Below, piece after piece: positions 9,163-49,043 of a DNA stretch of 64,000 nt (position 1 is its first letter; every line of letters starts with the position of its first letter). This stretch comes from an uncultured Bacteroidales bacterium. GTDB taxonomy: Bacteria; Bacteroidota; Bacteroidia; Bacteroidales; WCHB1-69. Under the pieces are notes generated by a model. It had not been told where the DNA came from. It saw only the letters and a program-made list of their open reading frames with translations, and searched no databases. The position numbers and the translations under genes were made by a program. The stretch covers positions 93,256-157,255 of the forward strand of contig OMYJ01000007.1 in NCBI GenBank assembly GCA_900315245.1, given 5' to 3'.

Positions 9163-9765
9163 TTACATTCCCAGGAACGCCATAAACCCCATGCCTAACA
9201 GTCCGGTGATGATGTAGGCGATGCCGTTGCCTTGCAGTTTGGGCGGGATTTTCGCGTATTTGAGGCGCTCGCGGATGGCGGCGAAGGCGGTGATGGCTAA
9301 TAGCCAGCCGATGCCGGAACCGAGCGCGTAGGCCAGACTGTGCGCCACGGTGGGGAAGTTGCGCTCCTGCATGAAGAGCGAGCCGCCGAGGATGGCGCAG
9401 TTCACGGCAATCAGCGGCAGGAAGATGCCTAACGTCATGTACAGCGCCGGAAGATACCGCTCGAAGACCATCTCCAACAACTGCACGATGCCCGCGATCA
9501 CCGCGATGAAGATGATCAGCGACAGGAACGAGAGATCCGTGCCGGCAAAGCTCGCGCTCAGCCACGTCAACGCCCCTTCGCGGAGCAGGTATTTGTCGAT
9601 CAGGTAGTTGACGGGCACGGTAACCGTCAGCACGAAGCAGACGGCCAGTCCCAACCCGAAAGCAGTCTTCACGTTCTTGGAAACGGCCAGATAGGAGCAC
9701 ATGCCCAGGAAGTAGGCGAAGACCATGTTGTCGATGAAGACGGAGCGGAGGAAGATTTCTATCAT
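9163..9765 (-). CDS. nqrE: Na+-translocating NADH:quinone oxidoreductase subunit E
   Basis: 200-aa polytopic protein, FIDNMVFAYFLGMCSYLAVS, typical NqrE/RnfA family. Confidence 0.95.
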   Translation of the reverse strand: MIEIFLRSVFIDNMVFAYFLGMCSYLAVSKNVKTAFGLGLAVCFVLTVTVPVNYLIDKYLLREGALTWLSASFAGTDLSFLSLIIFIAVIAGIVQLLEMVFERYLPALYMTLGIFLPLIAVNCAILGGSLFMQERNFPTVAHSLAYALGSGIGWLLAITAFAAIRERLKYAKIPPKLQGNGIAYIITGLLGMGFMAFLGM

Positions 9766-9838: not shown

Positions 9839-9908
9839 GCCCCACACTGCGCTTCGCTTATGTGGGGTTATTAGCGCTTCGCGCGTCTTGCCCCTTCGGG
9901 GCTGCTTA
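9839..9908 (+). repeat. ~70-bp direct repeat, left copy, flanking the methyltransferase gene
   Basis: GCCCCACACTGCGCTTCGCTTATGTGGGGTTATTAGCGCTTCGCGCGTCTTGCCCCTTCGGGGCTGCTTA. A further degenerate half-copy lies at 9801..9838. Confidence 0.8.
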
Positions 9909-9960: not shown

Positions 9961-10030
9961 ATCTTCATTCAACATTCATAATTCAGCATTCATAATTCAG
10001 CATTCATAATTCATAATTCTTAATTCTTAA
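9961..10030 (+). repeat. CATTCA(T/G)-type heptamer array
   Basis: ATTCAACATTCATAATTCAGCATTCATAATTCAGCATTCATAATTCATAATTCTTAATTCTTAA. Confidence 0.8.
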
Positions 10031-11030
10031 TGGAGTTTCGTTCCCAGAAGACGCCGTCGGCGTATCCTTGTATTGTGGGATTCGTGTCGGCGAGGAGGAG
10101 GCGTTTGGCGGTCCAGAGGCAGTATTCGCGGTTGAGTTCGACGCAGCAGAAGCGACGGTTGAGCTTCTTGGCAACGACGGCGGCGGTGCCGCTGCCGGAG
10201 AAGGGGTCGAGGATGCGGTCGTCGGGGTTGGAGGAGGCGAGGATGAGTTTGGCGTAGAGTTTCTCGGGCTTCTGCGTGGGGTGGTCGGTGTTCTCGGGCA
10301 TCGACCAGAAGGGCACGCTAATGTCGTCCCAGAAGTTGGAAGGGTGGGTGAGTCGGAATTTGCCCTCGGCGGTGTCGTCCCAGTCTTTGGGCTTCCCGTT
10401 CACTCGATATGGGGCTATCACCTTGCGTTTCATCATGACGGCATCCAGGTTGAAGGTGTGGTGTTTCGGGTCTTTCACGGCGAACCAGATGTCCTCCATG
10501 CTGTTCTTCCAGTTGGATTTCGCCCCGCGGCCCTTCTCGCGTTGCCAGGTGATGCGGTTGAGGATGGTAAGTCGCTCTTCGATAACCCGTTGCATGGAGG
10601 AGGAACATTTCCAGTCGCCGCACATGTAGAGCGTGCCAGTCGGTTTCAGCTTGTCGCACACCTTGCCGAACCAGCTGCGCAGGAATTCCTCGTATTCGTC
10701 TGATTTCATAGACGAGAACTTCCGTCCGTTGAAGTCTTTGTCGAGGTTGTAGGGCGGGTCGAGGAGGATGAGGTCGAAGTGTTTGTCGGGGATGAGGTCG
10801 AGGCATTCGAGCAGGTCGCCGTTGACGAGCATGTTGTCGCGGAAGCCCGAGCGCAGGTCGTCCGGCGTGCTGACGATCGGTTCCAGCGCGGGGACTTCCC
10901 CGGCGGTGACCGTCAGCGTCTGATTACGCGGGGCACGTCCCCCACACTGTGGCTCCGCCTTGTGTGGGGTTAATTTTGCTTCGCGCGTCTTGCCCCTCCG
11001 GGGCTGCTCAAGGAATGAATTCGTTGTCAT
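10020..11030 (-). CDS. Orphan beta-class N6-adenine/N4-cytosine DNA methyltransferase (N6_N4_Mtase family)
   Basis: Motif IV LLDPPYNL precedes motif I DPFSGSGTAAV. The track start 11075 is a TTG inside the -7 box, so the first plausible ATG is 11030 (alternative 10832). The first ~35 codons are encoded by a repeat element. No adjacent endonuclease is recognisable. Confidence 0.85.
   Translation of the reverse strand: MTTNSFLEQPRRGKTREAKLTPHKAEPQCGGRAPRNQTLTVTAGEVPALEPIVSTPDDLRSGFRDNMLVNGDLLECLDLIPDKHFDLILLDPPYNLDKDFNGRKFSSMKSDEYEEFLRSWFGKVCDKLKPTGTLYMCGDWKCSSSMQRVIEERLTILNRITWQREKGRGAKSNWKNSMEDIWFAVKDPKHHTFNLDAVMMKRKVIAPYRVNGKPKDWDDTAEGKFRLTHPSNFWDDISVPFWSMPENTDHPTQKPEKLYAKLILASSNPDDRILDPFSGSGTAAVVAKKLNRRFCCVELNREYCLWTAKRLLLADTNPTIQGYADGVFWERNSIKN
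10939..11010 (+). repeat. ~70-bp direct repeat, right copy (inside the 5' end of the methyltransferase ORF)
   Basis: CCCCCACACTGTGGCTCCGCCTTGTGTGGGGTTAATTTTGCTTCGCGCGTCTTGCCCCTCCGGGGCTGCTCA, in the same orientation as 9839..9908. Confidence 0.8.
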
Positions 11031-11064
11031 TTGCTGCCTCTTTCTCTCATGCTTTTCGAAGCCG

Positions 11065-11072
11065 CAAAGGTA
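11065..11072 (-). promoter_or_regulatory. -7 box (TACCTTTG) for the methyltransferase, possibly also feeding nqrEF
   Basis: Extended CCGCAAAGGTACA context, 35 nt upstream of ATG 11030. Confidence 0.55.
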
Positions 11073-11146
11073 CAATTTTTTGGTGTTCGTGCATAATCAT
11101 CAGAAACAACAATCGCATTTCACCTGCGCACTATCGGATTTTTTTG

Positions 11147-11154
11147 TACTTTTG
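11147..11154 (+). promoter_or_regulatory. -7 box (TACTTTTG) reading into the plus-strand island genes
   Basis: TAnnTTTG match divergent from the methyltransferase promoter. Confidence 0.45.
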
Positions 11155-11430
11155 CACCTGTAAAAATGGATAAGAACCAAACTTTATTGAATATTAGAAG
11201 AGAGAAATAGACATTTATAATTTTTTGATATAAAGCGTTTTTGCTTTTCAAGTAATCGGAAATCTGGACAATTTCCACTGTGTTACAGAAGAAGGCAGAA
11301 ATGCTCACGGTGTATCCGTGGGCTTTCTCGTTTGTAACACAGGCAGTCCAGAGCCTCCGATTAGACAGAAAGACTCACGGATTCTTTTTTGTGACAGCTC
11401 GAAAGGCGAAGCGCCCCAAACGCCAAGCCT

Positions 11431-11634
11431 ATGAGCACCAAGTTTTTCAACAATATCGAGACGAGGCTGATGGACAAATTCCACGGCATCGCCTCCGCCA
11501 TGGCCAACTTCGACATCTTCCATGCCGTGGTTGGCTATTTTCGTTCCAGCGGCTACTTCAAACTGCGCAAGGAGCTGGAGAAGGTCAGCGAAATCCGCAT
11601 CCTCGTCGGCATCAATATCGACACAATATTCTGA
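11431..11634 (+). pseudogene. N-terminal 67-codon fragment of a PLD-like-domain / SNF2-type restriction-like helicase gene
   Basis: MSTKFFNNIETRLMDKF...FDIFHAVVGYFRSSGYFKLRKELEKVSEIRILVGINID matches, from memory, the N-terminus of large PLD-helicase(-methylase) proteins. The ORF stops exactly where GC-rich sequence switches to AT-rich sequence. Confidence 0.55.
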
Positions 11635-11669
11635 AAATAATAAATACACGATTGCTTTTTAAGAAGTAG

Positions 11670-14027
11670 TTGAAACTTGCGACTATTTTTTTAGTTTTGC
11701 AAAGTCATATTCAAAAGAATTGTTTTTACAAAATATCAATAGTTGTGGAAAATTATAAACATGCTTGGCAATATGCTTTAAGAAATCAATTAAAGCACTT
11801 GCGGTCCGAAGGTGAGATATCTGAAAGAGAGTGCCTGTCTTTAATAGATGATATAATATCTTGTGATTCTGAAGCGGAATTTTATCGTCGTCATGACATG
11901 GATAACATTTTGAGTGGCGATATCATTCCTGACTTTGTCACAACTGATGATATTATCACAGATGACCTAACTATTGAAGACGAAGCACGTAAAATTGTAT
12001 TAGAGAAAAATATACAACTTATTGATGGCGTTTATTATTGTTTGAAAGAAAAAAAAGTAATCGCTATTAAGGGCGATGTAACACATTGTCATATACGAGA
12101 AGGAATTAAAGAAATCACTTACTATGCTTTTAGAAACTACTCCGAATTTGATATTCGAGATATTCTTGAGGATTATTCTGTCTTCAGTCACAATGCTTTA
12201 CTGGATATCATATTGCCTGATAGTTTAAAAAAGATAGATGACCTCGTCTTTTATAATACTAGTTTACGTAATGTTAAATTACCTGATGGTTTAGAAATGT
12301 TGGGAGAAAAAACTTTTGCTGCTAATGATTCTTTAGAAACAATTGTTTTACCAACCAAACTGCGCACAATAGGGAAAGGATGCTTTTCTAATTGTCCAAA
12401 ACTTAAGGAAGTTGAGCTTCCCCAATCGGTAAAAATGATAAAAGATGATTGTTTCAATGGCTGCACTTCTTTAGAAAAGTTTATTTTCCCTCAAACAGTG
12501 AAATCCATTGGTAAGTGCGTTTTCGAAAAATGTGTCTCTTTAAAAGAAATTGAGCTTCCTCATTCTTTGGAAACTATAGGACAAGCCGCTTTTACTAAGT
12601 GTACATCCCTACAGTCTATTATTATACCTAAAAATGTAAAAAACATTTCCGATAATGTATTTGGATATTGTTCCTCTTTAAAGAAAATTGAGTTTTTAGG
12701 GAGCTTCGACGAATTGAAGGGTGGTTTTTTTCGCAGTTGCTATTCATTGAAAGAAGTATTGTTGCCAAATAGTTTAGTAGAAATCGGCAATGCTGCTTTT
12801 AGCTCATGTATATCCTTAAAGGGCATAAAGATTCCTGACACAGTAGAATTAATAGGCTGTAACACTTTTAGAGATTGTATTTTGTTGGAGGAGTTCAGAT
12901 TTCCGAATAATCTTCAAGTTATTTTATCGCAAGCTTTTAAGGGATGCAAGAGCCTACGAGTAGTATATGCAAACAACAATATTGTAAAGATTTTTCCTAA
13001 CGCCTTTGATGATTGTAGTTCATTACAAGCCATTGTTGTTCCACCAGGATCGCTAAAACGAATGCAAAGTATCTTCCCGAAACGTGTTGCTGAAAAACTA
13101 GTAGAAATAGACCAGTTTCGGCCAGAAACTATTGTTGCTGTGCAACTTTATAAGAAAGATTATGTAATTAACAATATCAATCGTTCTTTTTTGAATAGTT
13201 TTCCGTGGAAGTATATTAATACCAACAATGTTACTCTCTTGCATCCCAATTACGTAGTTGGGCCTTGTCCAAAGCACCTTATTTATGAACGGGAAGATTT
13301 ATTGTCTCTTGAAACAAAGTACCAAGATTATTATTATAAGATTCAAAATGATTTTATACGAGGAACATTTTACAATCTCGATGACGAAATGTATAAGACG
13401 TATGCTTTCATACTATTTTTCGACTTAATTGCATCATACAGAGACAATAAAGATTTGAGTAAATTGCTTAATCAATTAGAAATTGTGCGTATTTCCTGTC
13501 CTATAATAGGGGATTATGTCCCAGAAAAGCTAATGACAATAATAGATTATAAACAATTGACTGGCACCTCTAAATTAATGATTCTTAAGGCTTTTCCGGG
13601 TTTTCGAGGCATGATGTCCATAAAGGACTATGCCCTGTTGGTGTTAAATTATTCTGATTCTCAAATAATCAAATTGAAAATACTGGAAGACGTTCAGATT
13701 TGTGAAATACAATTGTTGAAGTCTTATGAGAAAAGATACAAAGTGACACAAGGAGAGATTATAAAAGAAACGATAGATCTTGTGCTGCAAGTCGCCGGAA
13801 AATATGATGATTTTTCAAAGGCAGCGTTGTTGGCAGCAAAAAGGCAAAAAATCACATCTCTAACAGAGATAGGTTCGAGATTTTTGCGCAGATGCTTTCA
13901 GGAAGTGCTTCGTAATCATAATCCAAATATTATTTATGGTGATGGGATAGGATATGGAGATTGTGGAATTGAGAAAATTGATGAATACCTAAAGGAAATC
14001 ATGGAATCGAACACGCCGATTCACTGA
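11670..14027 (+). CDS. Signal-peptide-less BspA-type leucine-rich-repeat (LRR_5) protein with an unknown ~320-aa C-terminal domain
   Basis: About 11 repeats of the form LP.SL..IG..AF..C.SL..I.IP. The start is uncertain: TTG 11670 or the first in-frame ATG at 11898. AT-rich. No signal peptide or TM is visible. Confidence 0.75.
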   Translation: MKLATIFLVLQSHIQKNCFYKISIVVENYKHAWQYALRNQLKHLRSEGEISERECLSLIDDIISCDSEAEFYRRHDMDNILSGDIIPDFVTTDDIITDDLTIEDEARKIVLEKNIQLIDGVYYCLKEKKVIAIKGDVTHCHIREGIKEITYYAFRNYSEFDIRDILEDYSVFSHNALLDIILPDSLKKIDDLVFYNTSLRNVKLPDGLEMLGEKTFAANDSLETIVLPTKLRTIGKGCFSNCPKLKEVELPQSVKMIKDDCFNGCTSLEKFIFPQTVKSIGKCVFEKCVSLKEIELPHSLETIGQAAFTKCTSLQSIIIPKNVKNISDNVFGYCSSLKKIEFLGSFDELKGGFFRSCYSLKEVLLPNSLVEIGNAAFSSCISLKGIKIPDTVELIGCNTFRDCILLEEFRFPNNLQVILSQAFKGCKSLRVVYANNNIVKIFPNAFDDCSSLQAIVVPPGSLKRMQSIFPKRVAEKLVEIDQFRPETIVAVQLYKKDYVINNINRSFLNSFPWKYINTNNVTLLHPNYVVGPCPKHLIYEREDLLSLETKYQDYYYKIQNDFIRGTFYNLDDEMYKTYAFILFFDLIASYRDNKDLSKLLNQLEIVRISCPIIGDYVPEKLMTIIDYKQLTGTSKLMILKAFPGFRGMMSIKDYALLVLNYSDSQIIKLKILEDVQICEIQLLKSYEKRYKVTQGEIIKETIDLVLQVAGKYDDFSKAALLAAKRQKITSLTEIGSRFLRRCFQEVLRNHNPNIIYGDGIGYGDCGIEKIDEYLKEIMESNTPIH

Positions 14028-14072
14028 GCATACTGATTAAAAATAGGCGTGATGCTCTTTCTTTCTTTTATT
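14026..14072 (+). terminator. Candidate terminator after the LRR gene
   Basis: GAGCATAC...GTGATGCTC imperfect stem followed by TTTCTTTCTTTTATT. Confidence 0.4.
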
Positions 14073-14247
14073 AGTTGAAGCTTGGAGTTGCATATTCCGG
14101 CGATACCCGTTGGAGTTTTTGAGTTTGCGGAAAATTAGTCAAATATCTTATGAAAAAGAAAAACGATAACAAATACCGAAAATCAATACAATCAATATGT
14201 GATTGAGGTAATATCATAATCTCAAACACAATGGGGATTTACTACAG

Positions 14248-14469
14248 TTGGATAAGGTTCAATTTCTTACAGTCCCGTTATACTGTCCTTCTACTAAGCA
14301 ACAAACACTCGTTGTCGCTTTGGTTGACAAAATCATTGATGCTAAGAAGTCCAATCCTTCGGCTGATACCTCCGCGTTGGAGCGTGAGATTGACGAGTTG
14401 GTGTACGAGTTGTATCAATTGTCACCTGAAGAGATTGCCACAACAGAGGGTTATTGTACACAGAATTAA
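14248..14469 (+). pseudogene. C-terminal fragment of a type IIG / Eco57I-like restriction-modification methyltransferase
   Basis: ...LVVALVDKIIDAKKSNPSADTSALEREIDELVYELYQLSPEEI is the characteristic C-terminal tail of gamma-class RM/BREX-type methylases (from memory). No upstream catalytic region is present. Confidence 0.55.
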
Positions 14470-14548
14470 AATAATAGTGTAAATCGCTGTGTGATTTCTT
14501 GTTCAAAAGGTCTATTCACCTGTAATTTACTGCAATTTGGTTGATAAG

Positions 14549-14594
14549 AAATAGCATTTTTTTCTGACAATTCACGAATTAAATGCTATTTTTG
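14549..14594 (+). promoter_or_regulatory. -7 box (TATTTTTG, 14587..14594) embedded in an 11-bp inverted repeat
   Basis: AAATAGCATTT (14549..14559) and AAATGCTATTT (14581..14591) are perfect reverse complements. The right arm overlaps the -7 box. Confidence 0.5.
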
Positions 14595-14631
14595 TGAAAT
14601 AATCAACCTAACGAAAGGAGGTATAAAAGAA

Positions 14632-14757
14632 ATGGCAAAAAAAGTACCATCAAGAAGAGTCGCATCTCTTGCAGCTCGTGCGTTAAGAAATCGCAAATCA
14701 AGCAGAGCCTTAAAAAGTTTGGCGGGAAGTGTGCTTTCACAGCGAGAAAAGAGATAA
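14632..14757 (+). CDS. 41-aa Arg/Lys-rich micro-ORF (MAKKVPSRRVASLAARALRNRKSSRALKSLAGSVLSQREKR)
   Basis: Not in the track because it is <60 aa. ATG is preceded by AAAGGAGG at -18..-11 and by a TAnnTTTG box at 14587..14594. Coding status is unproven. Confidence 0.3.
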   Translation: MAKKVPSRRVASLAARALRNRKSSRALKSLAGSVLSQREKR

Positions 14758-14801
14758 AGCAATAAAAATGTTTATAATTCTAACAATTAAATCTAAGTAA
14801 C

Positions 14802-15224
14802 ATGGATAGTAGCAAATTAAAAGATCTTATCGTGACTTTGCTCATAGAAGAGTCATCAAAAGTTGGGAACAGATTCACGTTTGATGCCTGCGCAACACCG
14901 ATAAAAGAATCAACGTCTGATGATGTTGAGCGCGTACTGCATTCGTTGGCGCAAGATGGATTCATCAATTGTGATGATTTATTAGAAAACAACTACTTTA
15001 TAACATTAAACCAGTCAATTTTTGATTTGAAAGAGCGCGGCGGGTTTTCAATGCAACTTGAAATCCTAAAGTTGAGATTTGAGAAACTACAAATAGAGGT
15101 TGAAAAACTTGAGAAAGAAGACTTCGAAAAAAGCTCCATGAAAGTTTCCGCGTTTCGTGACATTACGGGAATATTGAGCTCTCTTATCAATATCGTTTCT
15201 GCCATTGCAGATTCTTACAAATAA
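14802..15224 (+). CDS. Hypothetical protein (possible wHTH-like N-terminus, coiled coil, hydrophobic C-terminal helix)
   Basis: AT-rich ORF with a 12-nt gap to the next ORF. LEILKLRFEKLQIEVEKLEKEDFEK coiled coil. C-terminal ITGILSSLINIVSAIA. No family recognised. Confidence 0.55.
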   Translation: MDSSKLKDLIVTLLIEESSKVGNRFTFDACATPIKESTSDDVERVLHSLAQDGFINCDDLLENNYFITLNQSIFDLKERGGFSMQLEILKLRFEKLQIEVEKLEKEDFEKSSMKVSAFRDITGILSSLINIVSAIADSYK

Positions 15225-15236
15225 AATAATCATACA

Positions 15237-16073
15237 ATGAAGACATTTCAAGATAATAACAAAAATGAATGCCCTAAACCAGGAATTCGTCAGAGGTGTT
15301 TTCGACACTCGATTTTTAAAACGCTATCTGATATTAAGGACTTTTATGAAAGTTTGTCTGGGAATGATGATACATCTACTATTCTCGCAATTAAGGGTGA
15401 AATCAACGTTAACTGGAGCATTCTTGAATCTCTTTCTAATACTATTGACTCCATAATAACATTGTTGGAAAGAGGTCATGTGAATGACTCGCTTGCCTTA
15501 ATGAGAAAATACAGCGATGCTGTCTTTTTGCATGTTTACATGCTTGTGCTAATAGAACAAGGAGAACAAAACTTTTTCGAAAAAGAATATGCAGATATCT
15601 ATGACAATGTCCTTAACCAATGGGTTAGAGGGGAAAGTTGTTTGATTGAGAAAAAGGACAAAGATGAGAAAACAGACGCTTATTTAGCAGAAATACGAAA
15701 ACGAGACGCTATATTAACCAAGCTGTTGTTTACAAAAGGCAATAAAACATTGTATGGAGAAGGTAGGGCTTCTTTTAACGACAACATTCATTACAACAAC
15801 TTGAAATCGTTTCGGTGGAACAATAATGCCTTTTTGGATTATGAAACATGTTTAACTGTACTGAATCAAGCAGAAAAAGCAATCAAACTTATTTTGAGCA
15901 TTCATTTCGCTTACATAACTCTATTGCGCCCAATGGCTTTGAAATCAGAAGAGGTTGGATCTTGTGCGGCCAATCCTTTCGCAGACGAAATTTTCAAGAA
16001 GTATATTGTTCCTGAATACTGCGAGTTAGCCAGTTACTTGAGACATTGTTCTTTTTTAACATTCGAAGAGTGA
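15237..16073 (+). CDS. Hypothetical all-alpha protein
   Basis: 278-aa AT-rich ORF tightly linked to 14802..15224. No family recognised. A loose resemblance to AbiV/HEPN-like helical proteins is only a guess. Confidence 0.55.
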   Translation: MKTFQDNNKNECPKPGIRQRCFRHSIFKTLSDIKDFYESLSGNDDTSTILAIKGEINVNWSILESLSNTIDSIITLLERGHVNDSLALMRKYSDAVFLHVYMLVLIEQGEQNFFEKEYADIYDNVLNQWVRGESCLIEKKDKDEKTDAYLAEIRKRDAILTKLLFTKGNKTLYGEGRASFNDNIHYNNLKSFRWNNNAFLDYETCLTVLNQAEKAIKLILSIHFAYITLLRPMALKSEEVGSCAANPFADEIFKKYIVPEYCELASYLRHCSFLTFEE

Positions 16074-16118
16074 CCGACTATAACTATCTTCGTGTCTATT
16101 CTATAAAATCAAACTATT

Positions 16119-16424
16119 ATGAACCAAAACGACCCGCGCATCACCGAATATCAAAACGACTTACAGCGCTATCAATCTTGGGGAAATTTATTCCTCGGTT
16201 TCTCTTTTGGTAGCTTCTTCTCCCCAAACGTGCCGTGCGATTCGCTAACCCTTCACAACGGCTTAGAGTATCTCAAAGCCAAAATGAAACTAAACGCCTT
16301 TAACAGCCAACATCATTCGGACGAGGAAATCGAGCACCGTTTGCGACAAATCGATACGGACATCCGCCATGTGGAGGAGGCCCTGCGGAACGACCTCTCC
16401 TTCCGAGGCCTGCTCCGTCCGTAA
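16119..16424 (+). CDS. Small hypothetical protein whose 3' half belongs to the island composite repeat
   Basis: 101 aa. Hydrophobic WGNLFLGFSFGSFFSP. The C-terminus HRLRQIDTDIRHVEEALRNDLSFRGLLRP recurs at 19500..19609, and a paralogous tail recurs at 16800..16887. Confidence 0.45.
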   Translation: MNQNDPRITEYQNDLQRYQSWGNLFLGFSFGSFFSPNVPCDSLTLHNGLEYLKAKMKLNAFNSQHHSDEEIEHRLRQIDTDIRHVEEALRNDLSFRGLLRP

Positions 16425-16887
16425 CCGCCGTCACGCGCCTCCCTGCCTACACCGGCGTCAACCGCCACGCCTCCGGCATCCGCATCGAGCTGATGGACAG
16501 CATGGTGCCGGTGGAAGCACTGGTGTGCGGGGTGAATCATCCCCGTCAGGGGATGCCTGTCTGTAGCGGATGCCCATGCGCGGGTTCAAATCCCCGGAGG
16601 GGATTCATGTTCAGCGGGTTGCCGAAACATTGTTGTGCCCGATGTGCAACCCCTCACGGGGTTGTGGGGGCTGCCGCATCGCCAACGGCTACAGACAGGG
16701 AACCCCTAACGGGGTTCGGGGGTGCGGTCGGGAACGTCCTCGCGCTACAGATATGGAAGCCCTGACGGGCTTTGGAAGGATACGGAAACGAGCCCATCAC
16801 CGCCTTGCCGAAATCGACGACGACATTCGCAAGGCCGAGGAGGTTTTCCGCTACGACCTCTCCTTCCTCAGGCGGTTGGAAACATGA
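16281..16887 (+). repeat. Island composite repeat copy A (alpha + beta units)
   Basis: Alpha ~16281..16623 aligns with 19469..19813. Beta ~16624..16887 aligns with 20980..21200. It is made of short perfect hairpins such as ATCCCC-GTCA-GGGGAT. Confidence 0.85.
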
Positions 16888-17047
16888 ATGCCCTAGTTCC
16901 ATATAATATAATAAGAACGCCCTGTTGCCACTATCGCACGTCGGGAATCCCATCCAAGTGGAAAATGCATTCCGTTAACAATGCGAATAGCAGATTTCAA
17001 AAATAATTCCAATCATCCAATATTTATTGCATAGAACAAAAAAAATG

Positions 17048-17055: not shown

Positions 17056-17134
17056 CAATTGCAAGCCGAGTTCGTTTACTCAGCTTGCATGAACTAATTT
17101 GGTGTAGTCATTGAATGTTTATTGAATCGGTGTG

Positions 17135-17794
17135 ATGGTAGAAAAGGACAAATTTACGGTGATGGTGAGTTCATCAGTGAACGGATTTGAAGATCAATTG
17201 CTTCGCATTGAGGCACAATTCATCACGTTGGAATATGATGTAATAATGTCAATGTCGGGTTCAATGAAGGTTGACCCAAGACTGCACAACTTTGACAATT
17301 GCTTAAAAGCCGTTGAAGAGTGTGATCTGTTTTTTGGAATTATCAGACCTGATTGCGGTACAGGCAGAGACGGAAGTGAAAGTATTACCTTTCAAGAATT
17401 TAAACATGCTCGGGAATGTCATAAACCTTGTTGGTATGTGATTGATAATCGAATTAAAACATACAAGAATTTGCTGAAATCTTTAGTTCTGCGTGAACAT
17501 CCAGACACAAAAGATGAAGATTTGAACAAAGCCATCACATCTTTCTATGATAACACTATAAGACAAAGGAGGAAACTTCCAAGAGTGTTGGATCTTTTTG
17601 AGACCAAAGACTTACATCAGTTTGATCCTTTATGTTTTGTTATGGAAGATTTTGTGAACCACAAAGGTTTACCTAAAGAAGAAATCACCAATAATTGGAT
17701 GCACTATTATGACCATGAATTGGATATCGCAAAATATATCCGTACAAATTTTGGGGACAAGGTATTCATTGCTAATGTATTAAAAGAATTTTGA
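17135..17794 (+). CDS. DUF4062-like (TIR / nucleoside deoxyribosyltransferase-like fold) protein
   Basis: FTVMVSSSVNGFEDQL...CLKAVEECDLFFGIIRPDCGTG...ITFQEFKHARECHKPCWYVI follows the DUF4062 pattern (vFiSS...DL..eR...cD.fv.i.G.rYG...S.te.Ey..A...kp...f). GTG 17132 / ATG 17135. TAnnTTTG box at 17048..17055. Confidence 0.6.
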   Translation: MVEKDKFTVMVSSSVNGFEDQLLRIEAQFITLEYDVIMSMSGSMKVDPRLHNFDNCLKAVEECDLFFGIIRPDCGTGRDGSESITFQEFKHARECHKPCWYVIDNRIKTYKNLLKSLVLREHPDTKDEDLNKAITSFYDNTIRQRRKLPRVLDLFETKDLHQFDPLCFVMEDFVNHKGLPKEEITNNWMHYYDHELDIAKYIRTNFGDKVFIANVLKEF

Positions 17795-17796
17795 TT

Positions 17797-19356
17797 ATGA
17801 GCGACAATTCGTATATAGTGGATTTTTTACTCAAAGATAGGCAAAATGTGGTGCCTATTCCAACAGCAGACCCCGTAGAGATTGCTAAAAATGCTTGTGC
17901 TTTGGCCAACACACAAGGAGGTACTATGCTCATTGGGGTCAATAATCTTGGCGAACTTGTAGGTGTTGGCCTAAAAGAAGCCACGGACATCATAAACAAA
18001 TGCCTTATCAACAATGTACACCCAACACTTCCTTTTACTATTGGCCATTCTGAAAAAGAGGGCAAAAACATTGCAATAGTTTCTGTTTGGGAAGGCCCGA
18101 ACAAGCCCTATGTTGCAAACGGTGCCTTTTACATACGAAAAGAGGATACTACTGTTGCTGCCTCATCTGACGAAATGATTGGCCTTTTTGAAGAAAAATA
18201 TTCATTAGATGAAGGATGGGAACGGAGAACGCAAGTTTCTGCTTCTATTGATGATTTAGACAGTGTTGCCATATCAAAAATTCGAAACGTATTACTACGG
18301 AAAGATGGAAAGTATGCGACAGCTTCAGAAGTGGAAATTATGCGAACTATGGGATTTGTAAAAGACCAATCCTTCACAAATGCTGGTGTTGTGGTAATGT
18401 CAAAACAGCCTTCCATATTTATACCTCAAACAAGAATTAGAGTGTCGGTATTCACAACGGATAATGGTCAAGCATCTTTGGCAGATGTAAGGTTATACGA
18501 TATTAGTCTTATATCCGCTGTTGACGAAGTGGTCGCCTATCTTTACAATCTATATCCTAAGCGTGTTGTTATCGAAGGAATGTTACGCTCTGATGTCGAG
18601 TCATTGCCGTTGTTGGCCTTACGAGAAGGAATATTAAACGCCGTAGTTCATCGTTCGTATGAAAGCCATCAGTCTTTTGTTGCCATTAATGCATATAGCG
18701 ATTATCTGGAAATTGTTAATAGTGGGAATCTTATGGATGGTGTCACCTTGGATGGATTAAAGAGCGTTCATCGTTCTGTTTTACGTAATCCGGATATTGC
18801 AAATGCTTTTTACCAATTAAGATATATCGAAATGGTGGGAAGTGGTACTTTAAGGATTATTGAATCCTGCAGACAAAACAGATGCGAAGAACCAGTATGG
18901 ACATTGGCGAACAATTGCGTGATTCTGACTTTTCCAAATGTCCATCACAATTTACAACCATTGAAAGAAAAGAAATCTGTTGATGTTTCCAATCTGACGA
19001 CAGACAATTCGGTCAAAGTTTCATTAACTGCTATTATGGATTATTTAGCTACTCATGATCACGTTAAATTAAATGAGTTGACAGAACTGACAGGAAAGAG
19101 CTACCCTTCAGTGAAAAGATACATGCGAATTCTGAAAGACGCATCATTAATTGAATATCTTGGTAATTTGCGTTCTGGCGGCTGGGCATTATCTAATAGT
19201 GTCAGCACCTCGCGTCATAGCAGACCGCTTGATGATCCCAATGATAGTCCTAATGATGATCTTAATGGTGATCCCAATGACGATCCTAATGATGATCCCA
19301 ATAGTGATCCCAATGGTGATTCCAATGGTGTTCCTAATGGTGATCCTAATATATAG
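17797..19356 (+). CDS. Schlafen-type AlbA_2 domain + HATPase_c_4 + wHTH protein (RecG-like putative regulator family) with a low-complexity Asp-Pro-Asn tail
   Basis: N-terminal IAKNACALANTQGGTMLIGVNNLGELVGV (AlbA_2). LREGILNAVVHRSY...MVGSGTLRIIESC (HATPase_c_4). wHTH LNELTELTGKSYPSVKRYMRILKD. Start is either ATG 17797, 2 nt after the upstream stop, or TTG 17791 overlapping it. Confidence 0.8.
   Translation: MSDNSYIVDFLLKDRQNVVPIPTADPVEIAKNACALANTQGGTMLIGVNNLGELVGVGLKEATDIINKCLINNVHPTLPFTIGHSEKEGKNIAIVSVWEGPNKPYVANGAFYIRKEDTTVAASSDEMIGLFEEKYSLDEGWERRTQVSASIDDLDSVAISKIRNVLLRKDGKYATASEVEIMRTMGFVKDQSFTNAGVVVMSKQPSIFIPQTRIRVSVFTTDNGQASLADVRLYDISLISAVDEVVAYLYNLYPKRVVIEGMLRSDVESLPLLALREGILNAVVHRSYESHQSFVAINAYSDYLEIVNSGNLMDGVTLDGLKSVHRSVLRNPDIANAFYQLRYIEMVGSGTLRIIESCRQNRCEEPVWTLANNCVILTFPNVHHNLQPLKEKKSVDVSNLTTDNSVKVSLTAIMDYLATHDHVKLNELTELTGKSYPSVKRYMRILKDASLIEYLGNLRSGGWALSNSVSTSRHSRPLDDPNDSPNDDLNGDPNDDPNDDPNSDPNGDSNGVPNGDPNI
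19231..19353 (+). repeat. 12-nt tandem repeat (~10 units) encoding the (D/N/S)-(D/G)-P-N tail
   Basis: GATGATCCCAAT GATAGTCCTAAT GATGATCTTAAT GGTGATCCCAAT ... Confidence 0.85.
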
Positions 19357-19381: not shown

Positions 19382-19612
19382 CATTGGCATCTCATTTCTC
19401 AGCTACTTTTCTTCCGATCTCCCAGCGGTTCCATAATTCGCAACAACAGTTTGGAATTCTGCAAATCCCAAAAGAAGCTAAACGCCCTCACCGATGCCCG
19501 TCACTCTGACGAGGAAACCGCTCACCGTTTGCGGCAAATCGACACGGACATCCGCCATGTGGAGGACGTCCTCTGTCACGACCTCTCCTTCCGAGGCCTG
19601 CTCCGTCCGTAA
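19382..19612 (+). pseudogene. Start-less degenerate copy of the 16119..16424 ORF
   Basis: The in-frame translation ...KKLNALTDARHSDEETAHRLRQIDTDIRHVEDVLCHDLSFRGLLRP* parallels the C-terminal half of the 101-aa ORF. There is no ATG, and a TGA lies immediately upstream. Confidence 0.45.
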
Positions 19613-19813
19613 CCGCCGTCACGCACCTCCCTATCCCACACCGCCCCCAACCGCCACGCCTCCGGCACCCGCATCGGGCTGATGGACAGCACGGTGTCGG
19701 TGGAGGCGATGGTGGGCGGGGTGCCCCCATCCCCGTTAGGGGATGCCTATCTGTAGCGGATGCCCACGCGCGGGTTCAAATCCCCGGAGGGGATTCATAT
19801 TCAACGGGTTGCA
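19469..19813 (+). repeat. Island composite repeat copy B (alpha unit only)
   Basis: Near-identical by eye to 16281..16623, with scattered substitutions. Confidence 0.85.
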
Positions 19814-20703: not shown

Positions 20704-20732
20704 ACGTGATAACGTAATCTTCAAATTGACAT

Positions 20733-21275
20733 CTCCGTCACGACCTCTCCTCCCGTCGCCTGCTCCGTCCGTGACCCCCTGTCCCGCACCTCCCTTGTCC
20801 CTCACCGCCTCCACCCGCCACGCTTCCGGCACCCGCATCGGGCTGATGGACAGCACGGTGCCGATCGAGGCGCTGGCGAGCGGGGTGGCTCATCCCCGTT
20901 AGGGGATGCCTATCTGTAGAAACGGATGCCCATGCGCGGGTTCAAATCCCCGGAGGGGATTCATTTTCAACGGATTGCCAAAACATTGTCGTGACCGATG
21001 TGCAACCCCTCACGGGGTTGTGGGGGCTGCCGCATCGCCAACGGCTACAGAGAGGGAACCCCTAATGGGGTTCGGGGGGCGCGGCCGGGAACGTCCTCGC
21101 GCTACAGATATGGAAGCCCTGACGGGCTTTGGAAGGATACGGAAACGAGCCCATCACCGATTTGCCGAAATCGACGACGACATCCGCAAGGCCGAAGCCC
21201 CTCCGTCACGACCTCTCCTTCCGTGGCCTGCTCCGTCCGTGACCGCCGTCATGCATCTCCCTTGTCCTACACCGC
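20733..21275 (+). repeat. Island composite repeat copy C (5'-truncated alpha + beta + a second partial alpha abutting nqrD)
   Basis: 20733..20979 aligns with the distal part of alpha. 20980..21200 aligns with beta. 21200..21275 repeats the start of the alpha core and overlaps the nqrD stop codon. Confidence 0.8.
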
Positions 21276-21857
21276 CCTCGGTCCTTTCGCCCAAATAATC
21301 ACCCCAATCAAGATCAGCGCCATGGGCGGCAAAATCATCAGCCCGTTGTTGAGGTAGCCGGCGGCGTACCAGCTGTCGGGGACGACCTGGTGGTTCCACA
21401 ACGTGCCGGAGCCGAGCAATTCGCGGAAGAAGGCCACCACGACGAGCACCAGCCCGTAGCCGAGACCGTTCATCACGCCGTCCATGAACGACGGGAACGG
21501 TTTGTGTGACAGCGCGAAGGCCTCCAACCGGCCCATGATGATGCAGTTGGTGATGATGAGTCCCACGAAGACCGACAGCATCTTGCTCACATCATAGAGA
21601 TACGACTGCAGCAACAGATCCACGAGGATAACGAAGAAGGAGACCACCAGCAGCTGCACGATGATGCGGATGCGTGGCGGTATCGTGTTGCGCATCAAAG
21701 AGATGATGAAGTTGGAGCAGGCACAGACCACCGTCACGGAGAGCGCCATGACCACGGCGGGCTTGAGTTGCGCGGTCACTGCCAACGCAGAGCAGACGCC
21801 CAACGTCTGCACTAAAATCGGGTTGTCTTTGCTGAGAGGTCCGAGGTACTTTTTCAT
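21267..21857 (-). CDS. nqrD: Na+-translocating NADH:quinone oxidoreductase subunit D
   Basis: NPILVQTLGVCSALAVT, polytopic, 196 aa. The last codons and the stop lie inside an island repeat. Confidence 0.95.
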   Translation of the reverse strand: MKKYLGPLSKDNPILVQTLGVCSALAVTAQLKPAVVMALSVTVVCACSNFIISLMRNTIPPRIRIIVQLLVVSFFVILVDLLLQSYLYDVSKMLSVFVGLIITNCIIMGRLEAFALSHKPFPSFMDGVMNGLGYGLVLVVVAFFRELLGSGTLWNHQVVPDSWYAAGYLNNGLMILPPMALILIGVIIWAKGPRAV

Positions 21858-21861
21858 GGCA

Positions 21862-22476
21862 TTAATGGTGATTGGTGATTTGTGAAGAGTGAATGGAGGA
21901 TTGCATCATCTCATCCACTCCTTTGGAGGTCAGTGTGGCGCCGGAGATGGCATCCACGCGGTTCTCTTTGGCGATTTCGCTAGCGGTTCCAGCTTTCAGA
22001 ACCCTCACGGACACGAAGTTGCCATCCTTATCGTAGAGTTTCTTGCCTTCGAAGGCTTTCAGGAACGCCTTTTCTGTGATTTTCGCGCCCAAGCCGGGGG
22101 TTTCCGATTTGTGGTCGAAAGCGACACCTTTGAGCGTTTGTCCGTCCTCCGACACCACCGCGTAGCCCCATATCGGACCCCAAAGCCCTTTGCCATCGAG
22201 ACGGATTGCTGTGCCCTTCGAACCGTCGGCGCAGATGACACGGTACTGCTGACCGTCATCGGTCAACGGCTCGGCAAGGTTTGCGAACGCCGCCACAGCT
22301 TTCGAACGGTCGATGTCGTGTCCGGCCGCCCGCAGGATCTGCTGATACGTCTCGGCCTGCCGATTGCGGTCGCGTCGCGGCTTTAACCCCGTGGAAACCA
22401 GAGTAAGCACCACCGCTATCACCACAACTAACGCCGTGATATAGAGGAAGATGTAGGTGTTGCTGAATTTTTTCAT
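21862..22476 (-). CDS. nqrC: Na+-translocating NADH:quinone oxidoreductase subunit C
   Basis: N-terminal TM. FMN attachment motif SGATLTS. The C-terminal QITNHH is encoded by heptamer-repeat-like sequence. Confidence 0.95.
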   Translation of the reverse strand: MKKFSNTYIFLYITALVVVIAVVLTLVSTGLKPRRDRNRQAETYQQILRAAGHDIDRSKAVAAFANLAEPLTDDGQQYRVICADGSKGTAIRLDGKGLWGPIWGYAVVSEDGQTLKGVAFDHKSETPGLGAKITEKAFLKAFEGKKLYDKDGNFVSVRVLKAGTASEIAKENRVDAISGATLTSKGVDEMMQSSIHSSQITNHH

Positions 22477-45274: not shown

Positions 45275-47035
45275 TTACAGTTTTACCACCGCATTGTAAA
45301 ACTCGATACAGGATTCCTTGATCTGGTCGGTGTTGGTGCGGTAGTCACCCTCCAGTTGCGCTTCCCATTTGTGGAGGTTTTGATTTTTCTTCCCCAAATG
45401 ATAGTTGAAATGGTATTTGGCTAAGTCGCCACCAGCCATAACGTTTATCTTTTCCACCATATCCGGGTTTTCTGTTTGAATCTGCAACGTGAAGGAATTG
45501 TCTTTGGGCGAGCAGCGGAATTCCGCCTTTAAGTTGTTGCGTTCGTAAATCCTGCCGTAGGTCTTGCCTTTTACCGCCCTTATGCTCGGAATGGAGGGTT
45601 TCAAGTCGGCCACGAAATGCTCAAAGAAACTCATTATTTCAAGGGCGGCCTGGCTCTTGCCCCTCTTCGGAGCCGTGTCGAACGCCTTGAGGTTGGTGAC
45701 CGCCGACAGGGCGATGACCGATTCCACGATGTCGCCCAATTTGTCGTCATTGCCGATGATTTCGGCGATTTTGTTGAGCAGTCTCGACACTTGGAAGGCG
45801 CGTATGCTCAGATAGGTCTCCTTTTGACACATCCGGAACAACACTTTCTCCCACTCCTCGTCGAACTCTGTGGCAGCGTTCAGGCTCTCCTTCTCATCTT
45901 CGGTCAGATGGCGCAGTTTCAGCTTCGCGGCAGTGCCATCGTTCCAATTCTTGAAATCGGGTTCTTCCGTCAGCTGGTTATACACGTACGGATAGGCGAT
46001 CTGCATACAGACCAACGCGAAATTGATCAGTTTGGCCTGTGTGGCATTGGTGTCATTCACCTCGTCATCGTCATCCCCTTCGTTGATGATGGAGATGAGC
46101 GACAGGGTGTTGCTCAGGCGTTTCAACGAGCGCGGGTTGCTTCCGACCGACAGGCGGGCAATCTCACTGAGGTTTTCGGCCAGAGACTCGTTTTCCAATT
46201 CCTTTGGTGAAAAAAATTCGATTTTCTGGAGGGCATCCACCAGGAAGGTGTCAACGTTGTAGGAGGCCACGGGCATCGAGAAGGGCAGTTGGATGATCTT
46301 GTCGAAGAATGCGCGGAACTCGCGCTCGTTCTTGTCGGTCAGCTCGCCGAATTTGGATCTCAGGCCCTTGATGACCACGTCGTAGTCTATGGCGAGGATG
46401 AACACGCACTTGTCGAGGTCGAAGATGTTCTTCATCAGTTCCAGAATCTCCACGGCGACAGGCGGGTCGATGCGGTCGAGGTCGTCAATGTAGAAAGTGA
46501 AGCCGATTTTCGACGGGTTCATCTTGAGGGCCTCCTCGATGAGTTTGGCGATTTCATTTTTCAGCTGGAGGATATCGGACTCAGCGCTTTCGCCGCCGAA
46601 CAGTTCGTCCACCACATCTCCGTCCACGCCCACGGTGCTGGCCGCCACCTTGGCGCCCACCGAGGCCATTTTCTTGAAGATGCCGCCAATTTTCTTCTTG
46701 CTCTCGTTCCATTTGTGGTCGGGATTGATTTCGCCGATTTGGTTTATACACCCTTCGAGGATGCTCATAATGGCCTGCGGTGGCGTTTTCATCAGCGAAT
46801 ACTGCCACGTGTTGACCCATACGGGGAAATAGGGTGCTCCCTCTTTGTCACACAGCTCATAGCGGAGCTGGTTCATCAGCGAGGTCTTTCCGCTGCCCCA
46901 CTCGCCTTGCAGGGCGATGGTGATGGGCGTGTTGGTGAGCCGGATGAACTTGACTAGCGCGTTCTGGTATTTTTGGATTCCGAACAAATCTGCCTCCGAA
47001 TATTTGCGAGGCACATCAATGATGCTGGATTTCAT
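45275..47035 (-). CDS. KAP-family P-loop NTPase
   Basis: Walker A LQGEWGSGKTSLMNQL. YIDDLDR Walker B/KAP signature. 586 aa. Confidence 0.85.
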   Translation of the reverse strand: MKSSIIDVPRKYSEADLFGIQKYQNALVKFIRLTNTPITIALQGEWGSGKTSLMNQLRYELCDKEGAPYFPVWVNTWQYSLMKTPPQAIMSILEGCINQIGEINPDHKWNESKKKIGGIFKKMASVGAKVAASTVGVDGDVVDELFGGESAESDILQLKNEIAKLIEEALKMNPSKIGFTFYIDDLDRIDPPVAVEILELMKNIFDLDKCVFILAIDYDVVIKGLRSKFGELTDKNEREFRAFFDKIIQLPFSMPVASYNVDTFLVDALQKIEFFSPKELENESLAENLSEIARLSVGSNPRSLKRLSNTLSLISIINEGDDDDEVNDTNATQAKLINFALVCMQIAYPYVYNQLTEEPDFKNWNDGTAAKLKLRHLTEDEKESLNAATEFDEEWEKVLFRMCQKETYLSIRAFQVSRLLNKIAEIIGNDDKLGDIVESVIALSAVTNLKAFDTAPKRGKSQAALEIMSFFEHFVADLKPSIPSIRAVKGKTYGRIYERNNLKAEFRCSPKDNSFTLQIQTENPDMVEKINVMAGGDLAKYHFNYHLGKKNQNLHKWEAQLEGDYRTNTDQIKESCIEFYNAVVKL

Positions 47036-47422: not shown

Positions 47423-49043
47423 TTATTTCTCGTAATTCTTTCGTGCCATTTCCAAGATGGTGAGCGCGGCCTTCGTCTGCTCAGTGGTCGGGGCTTTGTC
47501 CACCGGGAACTTGAAGGTGTGGTAGCTGACATTGCGTGAGGTGACCTTGTGCTCGAAGTTCGGAAGCGCTTTGCCAATCTTTTCAATCGCCACCGAATCC
47601 TCCATACCCCAGGCATTGACAACGAGAGCCTTGGGCTGTGGGGCAAAGGTGACGAAGTTCTTGGCCTTGCCATTCTGCGAAAAGCCGATGTAGCTTTTGC
47701 TGTCGTAGTTCACTTGGTAGGTGCCGTCTTGTACGTATGGCATCCCCGCAACGAGCCTGTCCAAAATCTGCAGCGCAGGTTTCACATCCTTCACCATGTT
47801 CTCCCAAACATCGCGGCCGGGAGCGGTCGAGCTGGCAGACTTTGCGGTTTGTTTCACTTCTTTGGGCGTCTCTTTTTCTTTCTTGGGTTCTTCTATTTTC
47901 TCGACAACTTTCTTCTCTGCCTTTGGTGTTTCTTTCTCTTTTTTTTGGTGCGTTTTTCTGCTGAGCCTCGTAAATGCGAGCATCCAGCAGCAGCTCGAAC
48001 TCATCGGTGTCGCCGCCGGCTTCTTTTACCTTTTTGATGAGGATGGCACGCTCTTTGTCGGTGACCACACCATCCACTAGGGCGGCTTGGATGAGTTTCT
48101 CCAGGTCAATGGAGGCTCCTTTGGCCGGGACTGTTTCCTTTTTCTTTTCCTTGGTTACTTTTTCCGCTGCCGGTTTCGGAGCTTTCTTTTTGCCCAGGTA
48201 GTTGATTTTTACACGATTGGTGAATGCGGTAGGGTGAATGACCACCTCTCCCTCCTCGTTCAAGATGTTAGCGATCTCAAGACCACATAACTGATCTCCA
48301 TTATCACCAAAGGCATCGTTGGCAACTGCAGTGACAGAATCGGGTATTGTGATTTCTTTTAATGAAGAACAGCCCTTGAAAACAGAGGAATTAATAAAAA
48401 TGACAGAATCGGGTATTGTGATTTCTTTTAATGAAGAACAGTCGGAGAAAGCATCGGGACCAATGGAAGTGACGGAATCGGGTATTGTGATTTCTTTTAA
48501 TGAAGAACAACGCTCGAAAGCAGAATCACCAATTTCAGTGACAGAATCGGGTATTGTGATTTCTTTTAATGAAGAACAGCCCAAGAAAGTACCGTAACGA
48601 ATGGAAGTGACAGAATCGGGTATTGTGATTTCTTTTAATGAAGAACAGCCCAAGAAAGCACAGCAATCAATGAGAGTGACAGAATCGGGAATTGTGATGG
48701 TTTCCAACGAGGAAGGAAAACGACAAGAAATTTTTTTGATTGTTTTAGGCAACACCACTTCTCTAGTTTGTGAATTAAAAATCTGCTCATACACTTTCGA
48801 GCTTCCTTTTTTTCTTTTATCAAAATATATCTCGGCTTCTTTGTATCTATCCAGAGCGGTGACTGTATATTCCACTCCGTTATATCTGACTCTTATAGGG
48901 ATGACGCACCTCTCAGAAGAATTTGTAGCATGTATTAGCGCCACCTCTTTTTGGGATTCATCTATGATTTTATAATAGAAACCGTAGAATTCAAAGGATG
49001 TTTTTTCGTCAGTACTGGTAATTTTTGTGTAATAATCTGCCAT
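47423..49043 (-). pseudogene. BspA-type LRR + TerB-like helical module + unknown C-domain protein, split by a frameshift in an A8 tract
   Basis: Track ORFs 47583..49043 and 47423..48004 overlap. Removing one A from the A8 run (47939..47946) joins ...YEAQQKNAPKK to EKETPKAEKK.... Six LRRs of consensus SLKEITIPDSVT. No signal peptide. Confidence 0.7.
48333..48720 (-). repeat. Six 69-bp tandem units encoding the LRRs of the frameshifted gene
   Basis: Units start at 48333, 48402, 48471, 48540, 48609 and 48678. A ~41-nt block (GACAGAATCGGGTATTGTGATTTCTTTTAATGAAGAACA) is invariant and ~28 nt are variable. Confidence 0.9.

Follow-up and report, generated by a model that had tools for sequence, protein, structure and literature searches.

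The stretch of DNA analysed here (hereafter the window, 64,000 nucleotides [nt] of an uncultured Bacteroidales bacterium; G000:C18:93256-157255) comes from a 3.05-Mb, 99.8%-complete metagenome-assembled genome whose closest public relatives are the rumen 'uncultured Bacteroidetes' metagenome-assembled genomes RUG13189 and RUG11690. Between two genes for Rnf-Nqr membrane subunits (9163..9765 and 21267..21857; Pfam E-values 2.4e-55 and 2.7e-56), outside both of which lie NqrF-like and FMN_bind genes, it holds an island with a GC content mostly of 32-37%, in host DNA of 55-62%. The site is a defence hotspot within the nqr operon, which it interrupts between nqrE and nqrD, and different strains hold different cassettes there. 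The subject of this work is a gene of the island that encodes a leucine-rich repeat (LRR) protein and lies between the remains of a helicase gene and of methylase genes. The window was compared with 60 related genomes (G numbers) and with individual contigs (L numbers), among them ENA metagenome contigs. The features on which the following relies are listed below.

11077..11430, plus strand: retained upstream region of the former helicase gene, 88-93% identical at the nt level to the region upstream of the intact helicases in G008, G020, G017 and G033
11431..11634, plus strand: relic of a PLD-SNF2 helicase gene, retained up to codon ~64-67, after which come three altered codons and TGA
11632..11636, no strand: left junction, where the helicase gene breaks off after ...GACAAYCTYTTCCG and the AT-rich insert begins, at codon ~67/68 (window, G019 and L019 aligned to three intact genes)
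11635..11744, plus strand: 5' leader of the insert; a -7-like box of its own, TAGTTTTG (11692-11699), lies 46 nt ahead of the start codon
11745..14027, plus strand: LRR gene, 760 amino acids from GTG; Pfam LRR_5, E 1.9e-83
13179..13544, plus strand: conserved helical module of ~120 amino acids in the C-domain of the LRR protein, motif YYYKIQNDFIxGxFYNLxDExYxxYAFILFFDL, weakly TerB_N-like
14038..14085, plus strand: right junction, at which a methylase gene of the L039 type is represented by its last ~10 nt, stop codon (GGCGTGATGC) and T-rich tail, with ~35 nt of downstream spacer behind them
14086..14212, no strand: stretch of 127 nt without match in the 60 relatives, with a second breakpoint somewhere inside
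14213..14469, plus strand: second methylase-tail relic, the last 79 residues of a G008:C70-type Eco57I/TaqI_C methylase

Replacement of a helicase-methylase operon in the nqr hotspot

A preliminary description made from the letters of this DNA had taken the 67-codon fragment at 11431..11634 for the N-terminus of a PLD/SNF2-type helicase that ends at a GC-to-AT switch, and both points were borne out. A six-frame search of the 60 relatives was needed for the identification, Pfam and NCBIfam being insufficient: the helicase fragment gave only noise in both, with no recognised family. The six-frame search matched it in 13 genomes besides the window's own (best E-values per genome from 1.5e-40 to 5.9e-29). 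It corresponds to the first 67 residues, 96-97% identical, of frames of 1104-1188 amino acids in the same-genus genomes G008, G017, G020 and G033, and is 75% identical to the N-terminus of a 1194-amino-acid frame in G018, which is of the same genus as well. Against the intact helicase of G020 the identity was 96% (E 2e-43). That protein carries PLDc_2, SNF2-rel_dom, ResIII and Helicase_C domains, and its best PADLOC model is the candidate 'HKD+Snf2' (C3a139; 8.8e-45). Its PLDc_2 domain spans residues 58-208 and its helicase motifs start at ~270; the fragment, which ends at residue 67, contains neither the HKD/PLD catalytic domain nor SNF2 helicase motifs, and further pieces of the helicase were found neither in the window nor in the rest of the genome. 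The GC content drops from 0.52 (11300-11599) to 0.32 (11600-11899), and nt homology to every intact helicase copy ends at 11623-11633. The left junction is identical in all three assemblies in which the operon has been gutted in this way. Within the retained upstream region, a motif scan located a Bacteroidetes-type -7 box, TACTTTTG, at 11147, one of 19 such motifs on the plus strand of the 64 kb.

What stood there before can be read from relatives. In G020, G008:C70, L039 and L041 the PLD-SNF2 helicase gene is intact and is followed by an adjacent gene for a methylase of 1017-1105 amino acids with Eco57I and TaqI_C domains, whose best PADLOC model is a type IIG restriction enzyme/methyltransferase (6.7e-88). 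Gene pairs of a Cj0031-like type II enzyme and a PLD/SNF helicase have been noted (PMC9881135), and the intact relatives have exactly the architecture and gene order of PLD(HKD)-SNF2 and Eco57I/Cj0031-like type IIG pairs, whereas the window keeps 67 N-terminal and 79 C-terminal residues and the system is extinct there.

The right junction was located with the help of L039, which represents the un-gutted state and has the same downstream genes as G019: it contains the intact helicase and an intact methylase of 1105 amino acids (end at 5930), and then a KAP NTPase gene, an AAA_21+RloB pair and a ResIII helicase gene. The G019 sequence (L012 11111-19894) equals L039 5917-14700 at 98.9% identity, starting 11 nt past the stop codon of the LRR gene; since the L039 methylase ends at 5930, the insert ends within the last ~10 nt of the methylase gene. 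In the alignment the stop within GGCGTGATGC and the T-rich tract are kept in the window (14039-14070), in G019 and in L019, the right edge of the insert lies at ~14038-14050, and the window tracks the L039/G019 spacer for ~35 nt past the methylase end, up to 14085. An '18-codon KAP stub' read at 14030-14085 was dropped, as gene callers start the KAP gene further downstream (899-907 amino acids) and L039 shows methylase end and spacer at this place. G019 is 97% identical to window 11058-14085, with the same N-terminal fragment and the same LRR gene. Both junctions are common to the window, G019 (RUG13189) and the ENA contigs L019/L020, the flanks of which are ~13% divergent; the gutting is therefore one old event and not a misassembly. 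The stretch replaced runs from helicase codon ~68 to the last methylase codons (~6.5 kb in G020), and the insert of ~2.4 kb consists of the 110-nt leader, the LRR gene and ~10 nt after its stop.

The fragment at 14248..14469, earlier described as the C-terminus of a type IIG/Eco57I-like methylase, is indeed one, the homology actually spanning 14215-14451: it shows 81% amino acid identity over 79 residues (987-1065) of the 1068-residue G008:C70 methylase (E 3e-34), an enzyme with Eco57I (8.6e-33) and TaqI_C (1.2e-9) domains, and 89% identity at the nt level. With the tail of the G020 methylase the identity is 58% (E 7e-21). It is not, however, the right-hand edge of the replacement for which it had been taken, since it lies 160 nt beyond the true edge and derives from a different methylase; with it the following block of the mosaic begins. 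Hence the earlier idea of one or more defence genes with their interior swapped for foreign DNA holds as regards the replacement, relatives having the intact pair, and fails as regards the right boundary, and the question whether the two fragments are the two ends of one gene is answered by two adjacent genes whose outer ends are those of one operon. Neither a SAM-binding/catalytic domain nor a TaqI_C recognition domain is left in the tail; the fragment has no Pfam match and gave only noise in NCBIfam. It is the only such tail in the window, where no other piece of the methylase was found, and the rest of the genome holds no other copy of the lost helicase or methylase. The sole Eco57I-like gene of the genome (G000:C7:33537-35864, a 1070-amino-acid open frame) is 30% identical to the lost methylase. 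The low GC content of the tail is no sign of a separate origin, because the G008:C70 methylase itself falls from ~0.52 to ~0.35-0.40 GC in its last third, its subsequent genes being AT-rich as well. The helicase and methylase fragments, from which every catalytic motif is missing, are inert relics.

The nt match to the tail of the G008:C70 methylase covers window 14213-14415. Further downstream, window 15273-16862 and 20793-21996 are 94% and 89% identical, respectively, to the region downstream of the G008:C70 methylase (a gene for 278 amino acids, GC-rich repeats and nqrD). The block in between, 14470-15272, is unique to the window's genome and has an Arg/Lys-rich open reading frame (ORF) of 41 amino acids, an ORF of 140 amino acids and a -7 box, TATTTTTG, at 14587; G008:C70 has genes for 259 and 163 amino acids at the same place instead, and no family match was obtained for either set.

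The ancestral occupant of the site was a two-gene operon like those of restriction-modification systems, encoding a PLD-nuclease/SNF2-helicase and then an Eco57I-family methylase with a TaqI_C specificity domain. As the alignments document, ~6.5 kb of this operon was exchanged in the one old event for 2.4 kb of AT-rich foreign DNA. What stayed in place was the old promoter region with the 67 initial codons of the helicase on one side and the methylase stop with its T-rich tail on the other; nuclease and methylase went together, which avoids self-restriction. The joint between the LRR-gutted haplotype and a right half like that of G008:C70 is present in the window, and would have arisen by a second recombination or a deletion, presumably at a later time.

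This operon has been subject to repeated turnover, because similar tail scars occur in L039 and G019 and the same helicase was gutted independently in G002. Short methylase-tail relics (..ALEREI..LVY..) are found after the KAP NTPase gene too, in L039 (8742-8831) and in L012, the contig of G019 (13935-14024). In G002 (L014, G002:C76, 1-4228) an AT-rich insert of 3.3 kb, which holds a gene for a DUF488 protein and two ORFs of 278 and 449 amino acids without assigned family, separates residues 1-127 of the helicase from residues 682-844. It may be that the conserved 3' end of Eco57I-type methylases, which recurs as a scar between cassettes, acts as a recombination anchor. The scar in itself is ordinary defence-island biology, and it shares with other hotspots of cassette replacement a fixed site, changing cassettes, truncated gene ends and AT-rich incoming DNA. 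It differs from them in being unusually tidy, with promoter region plus 67 codons kept on one side and stop plus T-rich tail on the other, in the loss of nuclease and methylase in a single step, and in having no integrase or transposase associated.

Some other features of the island can be mentioned here. No tRNA genes and no Rfam families were detected in 9-22 kb; the island has thus not integrated at a tRNA site, nor do the GGTTCAAATCC-like strings derive from tRNA genes. An orphan N6_N4_Mtase gene (10020-11075, minus strand; Pfam 5.4e-41) is bracketed by 50-nt direct repeats that are 88% identical (9857-9906 and 10959-11008); this unit of gene and repeats is missing entirely in G002, where nqrE directly adjoins the region upstream of the helicase. 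The AT-rich cassettes are set apart from one another by composite repeats that are GC-rich and have REP-like hairpins (16237-16900, 19425-19812 and 20732-21262); these repeats are also present in G008, G002, G015, G033 and L019. At 17132-19356 a gene for a DUF4062 protein (Pfam 4.1e-11) overlaps one for a protein with Schlafen AlbA_2, HATPase_c_4 and helix-turn-helix regions (9.9e-16, 4.8e-17), and this pair is a further defence-like cassette of the island.

The LRR protein and its C-domain

The protein encoded by the insert had been described as an LRR_5 protein of 785 amino acids without signal peptide and with a C-terminus of ~320 amino acids. The LRR_5 repeats, the absence of a leader and a C-terminal part (~300 amino acids) without Pfam match were all recovered, while the length is likely 760 amino acids. 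The start is probably GTG 11745 and not TTG 11670, because the orthologues in L018 (52% identical) and L019 (72%) begin with ATG where the window has this GTG, and in L019 an in-frame stop interrupts the putative extension to TTG. Lengths of 760-766 amino acids came from independent gene calls. The leader of the insert is conserved in L019 (87% identity over 11230-11774), and a hairpin 3' of the gene is unconvincing as a terminator in the window copy (z-score 0.58). A cryptic upstream signal peptide was looked for and none was found, the extension not being conserved and its hydrophobic run being of only 8 residues. The N-terminus from GTG (MENYKHAWQY...) is hydrophilic, the maximum Kyte-Doolittle mean over 19 residues in the whole protein is 1.2, and hydropathy and inspection of the sequence disclosed no hydrophobic leader, membrane segment or lipobox; Pfam, in which LRR_5 and LRR_8 were the sole matches, disclosed no secretion-tail domain. 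We infer, as a strong inference, that the protein is cytoplasmic.

A helical N-terminal mini-domain (residues 1-57) and an acidic disordered linker precede the repeats (~90-460), which are joined by another linker to an all-helical C-domain (~480-760). There are ~13-14 BspA-type repeats of 23 residues, with eleven units of exact period and degenerate flanking units, and LRR_5 is matched in three stretches. An AlphaFold2 (AF2) model of the full-length protein (mean pLDDT, the per-residue confidence score, 65.5) has a solenoid of ~14 strands over residues ~90-460 (pLDDT 85-95) and a helical C-terminal region. When the C-domain was modelled alone with a deeper alignment it came out as all-alpha, with pLDDT 71.8, above 80 over residues 30-230, and pTM 0.66. 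The preliminary description had called this domain unknown; it has no Pfam match and the predicted structure gave no fold match.

LRR_5 proteins are typically surface proteins. The one in the window shares with the BspA-type proteins of Bacteroidota, Clostridia and protists the 13-14 repeats of 23 residues (LxxIxIPxSVxxIGxxAFxxCxS) and the confident solenoid model; unlike the surface proteins of this type, it lacks a signal peptide, a lipobox, a membrane segment and a secretion tail, its repeats are fused to a helical domain on the N-terminal side and to a conserved, all-helical one on the C-terminal side, and it is located in defence islets.

The ratio of nonsynonymous to synonymous substitution rates (dN/dS) is 0.25 against G019, 0.30 against L019 and 0.22 against L018, and the gene is intact, with no stop codons, in four lineages. 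The gene is thus maintained, under purifying selection. It is also a mosaic: relative to G019 the first 470 codons differ at one site and the C-domain has a dS of 0.155, and relative to L019 the C-domain has a dS of 0.12 and the N-domain and repeats are saturated (dS > 1.3). Orthologues differ at repeat positions 3, 5, 8, 9, 12, 15-17, 19, 20 and 22, the scaffold positions being kept, and L018 has one additional 23-residue unit. Such variation is the pattern that would be expected of a binding surface that changes specificity.

The combination is a rare and undescribed architecture. Among 5.8 billion proteins, no more than four clusters (at 90% identity) have the C-domain in this arrangement, and only 2 of 185,579 species-representative genomes encode relatives. 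In PHROGs nothing specific for the LRR protein was found, the matches covering the repeats alone. An exhaustive HMMER search with the C-domain collected 29 proteins at E <= 1e-3. Four of them (P0005-P0008) have the same C-domain (31-38% identity over ~210 residues) behind unrelated N-terminal parts without LRRs; the remaining ones share only the core of ~120 amino acids, often as two tandem copies, in the N-terminal part of proteins with TerB_C at their end. The motif of this core aligns in register with the TerB_N motif YWPxYxxL...YL.WL..G......GYVFLYFYGLERR, and hhalign, run with a 34-sequence alignment of the module, gave a P of 2e-4 and a probability of 46% against eight TerB_N sequences and a P of 0.0076 with five. 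The core of the C-domain could be TerB_N-like. Assignment of the C-terminal 166 residues to TerB_C was rejected (probability 0.1% against a TerB_C alignment). Shango, Bunzi and Dionysus are defence systems in which TerB-type domains are present (10.1101/2025.09.30.679545). What the window protein may have in common with TerB_N/TerB_C proteins and with these systems is the core, which recurs N-terminal to TerB_C and has its motif in register; it differs in having no TerB_C and, unlike Shango, no ATPase or helicase partner.

Genomic company and competing explanations

The LRR gene occurs in four contexts, always in AT-rich islets beside defence genes. In the window it lies between the relics; in G019 it is followed by the KAP, AAA_21+RloB and ResIII helicase genes; in L019/L020 by an IS110 transposase gene and an AAA_15/21 ATPase gene; and in L018/L021-24, within an islet of 28-32% GC, by an AbiH gene on the same strand after 123 nt. 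The gene for P0005, the closest relative of the C-domain without LRRs, is in turn located 62 nt downstream of another AbiH gene and has its strand; the islet around them is AT-rich and includes an AAA_15/21 ATPase gene, and the gene for P0006 is near such an ATPase gene as well. The two AbiH proteins (L018 7288-8262; L054 4434-5393) are 23% identical (E 1e-8). AbiH is described as a single-gene system. The loci resemble AbiH abortive-infection loci in that genes with the C-domain stand 62-123 nt from AbiH on the same strand in two distantly related lineages, but the window has no AbiH gene and the order of the two genes differs between the lineages. The AbiH link in two distant lineages is the best contextual hint of a role in conflict.

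Another LRR_5 gene had been pointed out in the same window, and it does exist, with the caveat that it is split by a frameshift:

47423..49043, minus strand: second LRR_5 gene, leaderless, with a TerB/DUF533-like segment, upstream of a KAP NTPase gene at 45275..47035

The TerB/DUF533-like segment is a weak match (E 0.0018, below the cut-off). The frameshift is due to a run of eight A residues (47939-47946, minus strand), with seven of which a single protein of ~540 amino acids would result, and could represent phase variation, decay or an assembly error. The KAP NTPase at 45275-47035 (minus strand) belongs to a very widespread Bacteroidales family, with more than 4600 matches, many of them 76-100% identical. 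It ends a row of genes on the same strand, the penultimate of which varies: the LRR-TerB-like gene here, GIY-YIG in L043 and TerB/DUF533 in L045.

These neighbours bear on whether the LRR protein is one half of a two-gene system, an LRR sensor with a PifA-like ATPase, of which the window copy would be the dead half. The idea is suggested by G019, where a KAP NTPase of 938 amino acids (KAP1; PADLOC PifA, 5.8e-26) directly follows the LRR gene, and by the second LRR_5 gene of the window, which is upstream of another KAP NTPase (KAP2); besides, KAP NTPases have been shown to be antiphage (bioRxiv 10.1101/2025.10.07.681051). However, the same KAP (98%) directly follows the intact methylase in L039, without an LRR gene, so that KAP predates the insert; the other KAP1 relatives (L040, L041/L042) also have no LRR neighbour, and the LRR gene has no KAP in the window, L019 or L018. 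KAP2 relatives carry GIY-YIG or TerB/DUF533 genes upstream instead, and KAP1 and KAP2 are only 22% identical. The adjacency thus looks largely refuted as evidence of a system, and we would give this possibility little weight. A first literature search on KAP plus LRR returned plant papers only. Slightly less doubtful, although still unlikely, is that the protein is a BspA-like adhesin of the ordinary kind, secreted or on the surface, whose presence in an island is a coincidence and which is exported from an unrecognised start or by a non-classical route. This would agree with the usual location of the family, with the best NCBIfam matches, HupY/LrrG adhesin and Gli349, which are far below the cut-off, and with the TTG-extended reading, which opens with the short hydrophobic run MKLATIFLVL. 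Against it stand the lack of conservation of that extension, with its stop in L019 and the ATG codons of L018 and L019 aligned to GTG 11745, the mere 8 residues of the run, the absence of lipobox, membrane segment and secretion-tail domain, and the start of the second LRR_5 gene, which is hydrophilic too.

Two explanations concern the scar rather than the protein. Eco57I-domain methylases and Cj0031-like type II genes adjoining PLD+SNF helicases are enriched among the targets of programmed inversion (PMC9881135), and methylase tails recur after cassettes in relatives, so the tail at 14213-14469 might be conceived of as a silent specificity cassette for programmed recombination with an active Eco57I-type gene. 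This is very improbable: the genome has no intact methylase of this type, its sole Eco57I-like gene, on a different contig, being 30% identical, the tail has a direct and not an inverted orientation, it comprises the last 79 residues only and not a full recognition domain, and there is no recombinase gene in 9-22 kb. The least credible alternative is a chimera of metagenome assembly or a set of chance ORFs. The genome is metagenome-assembled, and composition shifts sharply at the joints, but the same two junctions are present in three independently assembled data sets and the fragments are matched with E-values of 1e-34 to 1e-43, and we attach next to no probability to it.

A putative intracellular sensor and its significance

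The whole locus is best explained, with a probability of roughly 0.75, as the scar of cassette turnover in a defence hotspot, with an insert that is a self-contained gene and whose product would act inside the cell, as a binding protein or sensor of a conflict system. That the LRR protein is a sensor is plausible: the lack of export signals, the purifying selection, the variation at non-scaffold positions of the repeats, the defence neighbours and the presence of AbiH in two lineages are all compatible with it. The LRR face would recognise a protein of a phage or mobile element, and the conserved C-domain, which may be TerB_N-like, would relay the signal or provide docking to a partner or to the membrane; in some lineages the LRR protein would work beside AbiH.

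Several points weigh against this explanation. Every genome compared is a metagenome assembly, the GTG start was inferred from orthologues, and the data do not fix which of the two recombination events came first. The TerB_N link is weak, the hhalign probability being the 46% given above and Pfam TerB_N (PF13208) having no match even at E 5; the C-domain has no Foldseek match in PDB or BFVD (E <= 0.001), and PADLOC-DB 2.0 gives 0 families for the LRR protein (E 0.001). In addition, the window copy of the LRR gene has no conserved partner gene and may be an orphaned part of something larger.

A more specific and tentative proposal, which we consider rather less likely than its opposite, is that these proteins are immune receptors acting inside the cells of rumen and gut Bacteroidales and make up a family that is new and very rare. 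They would be either a single-gene anti-phage system or a swappable sensor arm of abortive infection of the AbiH type, in which the hypervariable LRR binds a phage protein and the TerB_N-like C-domain, shared with P0005-P0008, serves as a common module for output or docking.

The locus provides a base-level example of how a defence hotspot is overwritten, a whole restriction operon going out while expression signals are kept, and the gene tails that remain are marks of successive exchanges, which they may also facilitate. Should the LRR protein not be a sensor, the locus would be a routine island scar. The incoming gene is an added case of a BspA-type LRR protein that apparently acts inside the cell. 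LRR-based intracellular recognition is known from plant and animal NLRs and from bacterial Avs/STAND proteins; if the sensor role is true, such recognition would be extended to a scaffold that is not an NTPase, and the poorly understood AbiH and TerB_N families would gain a testable partner.

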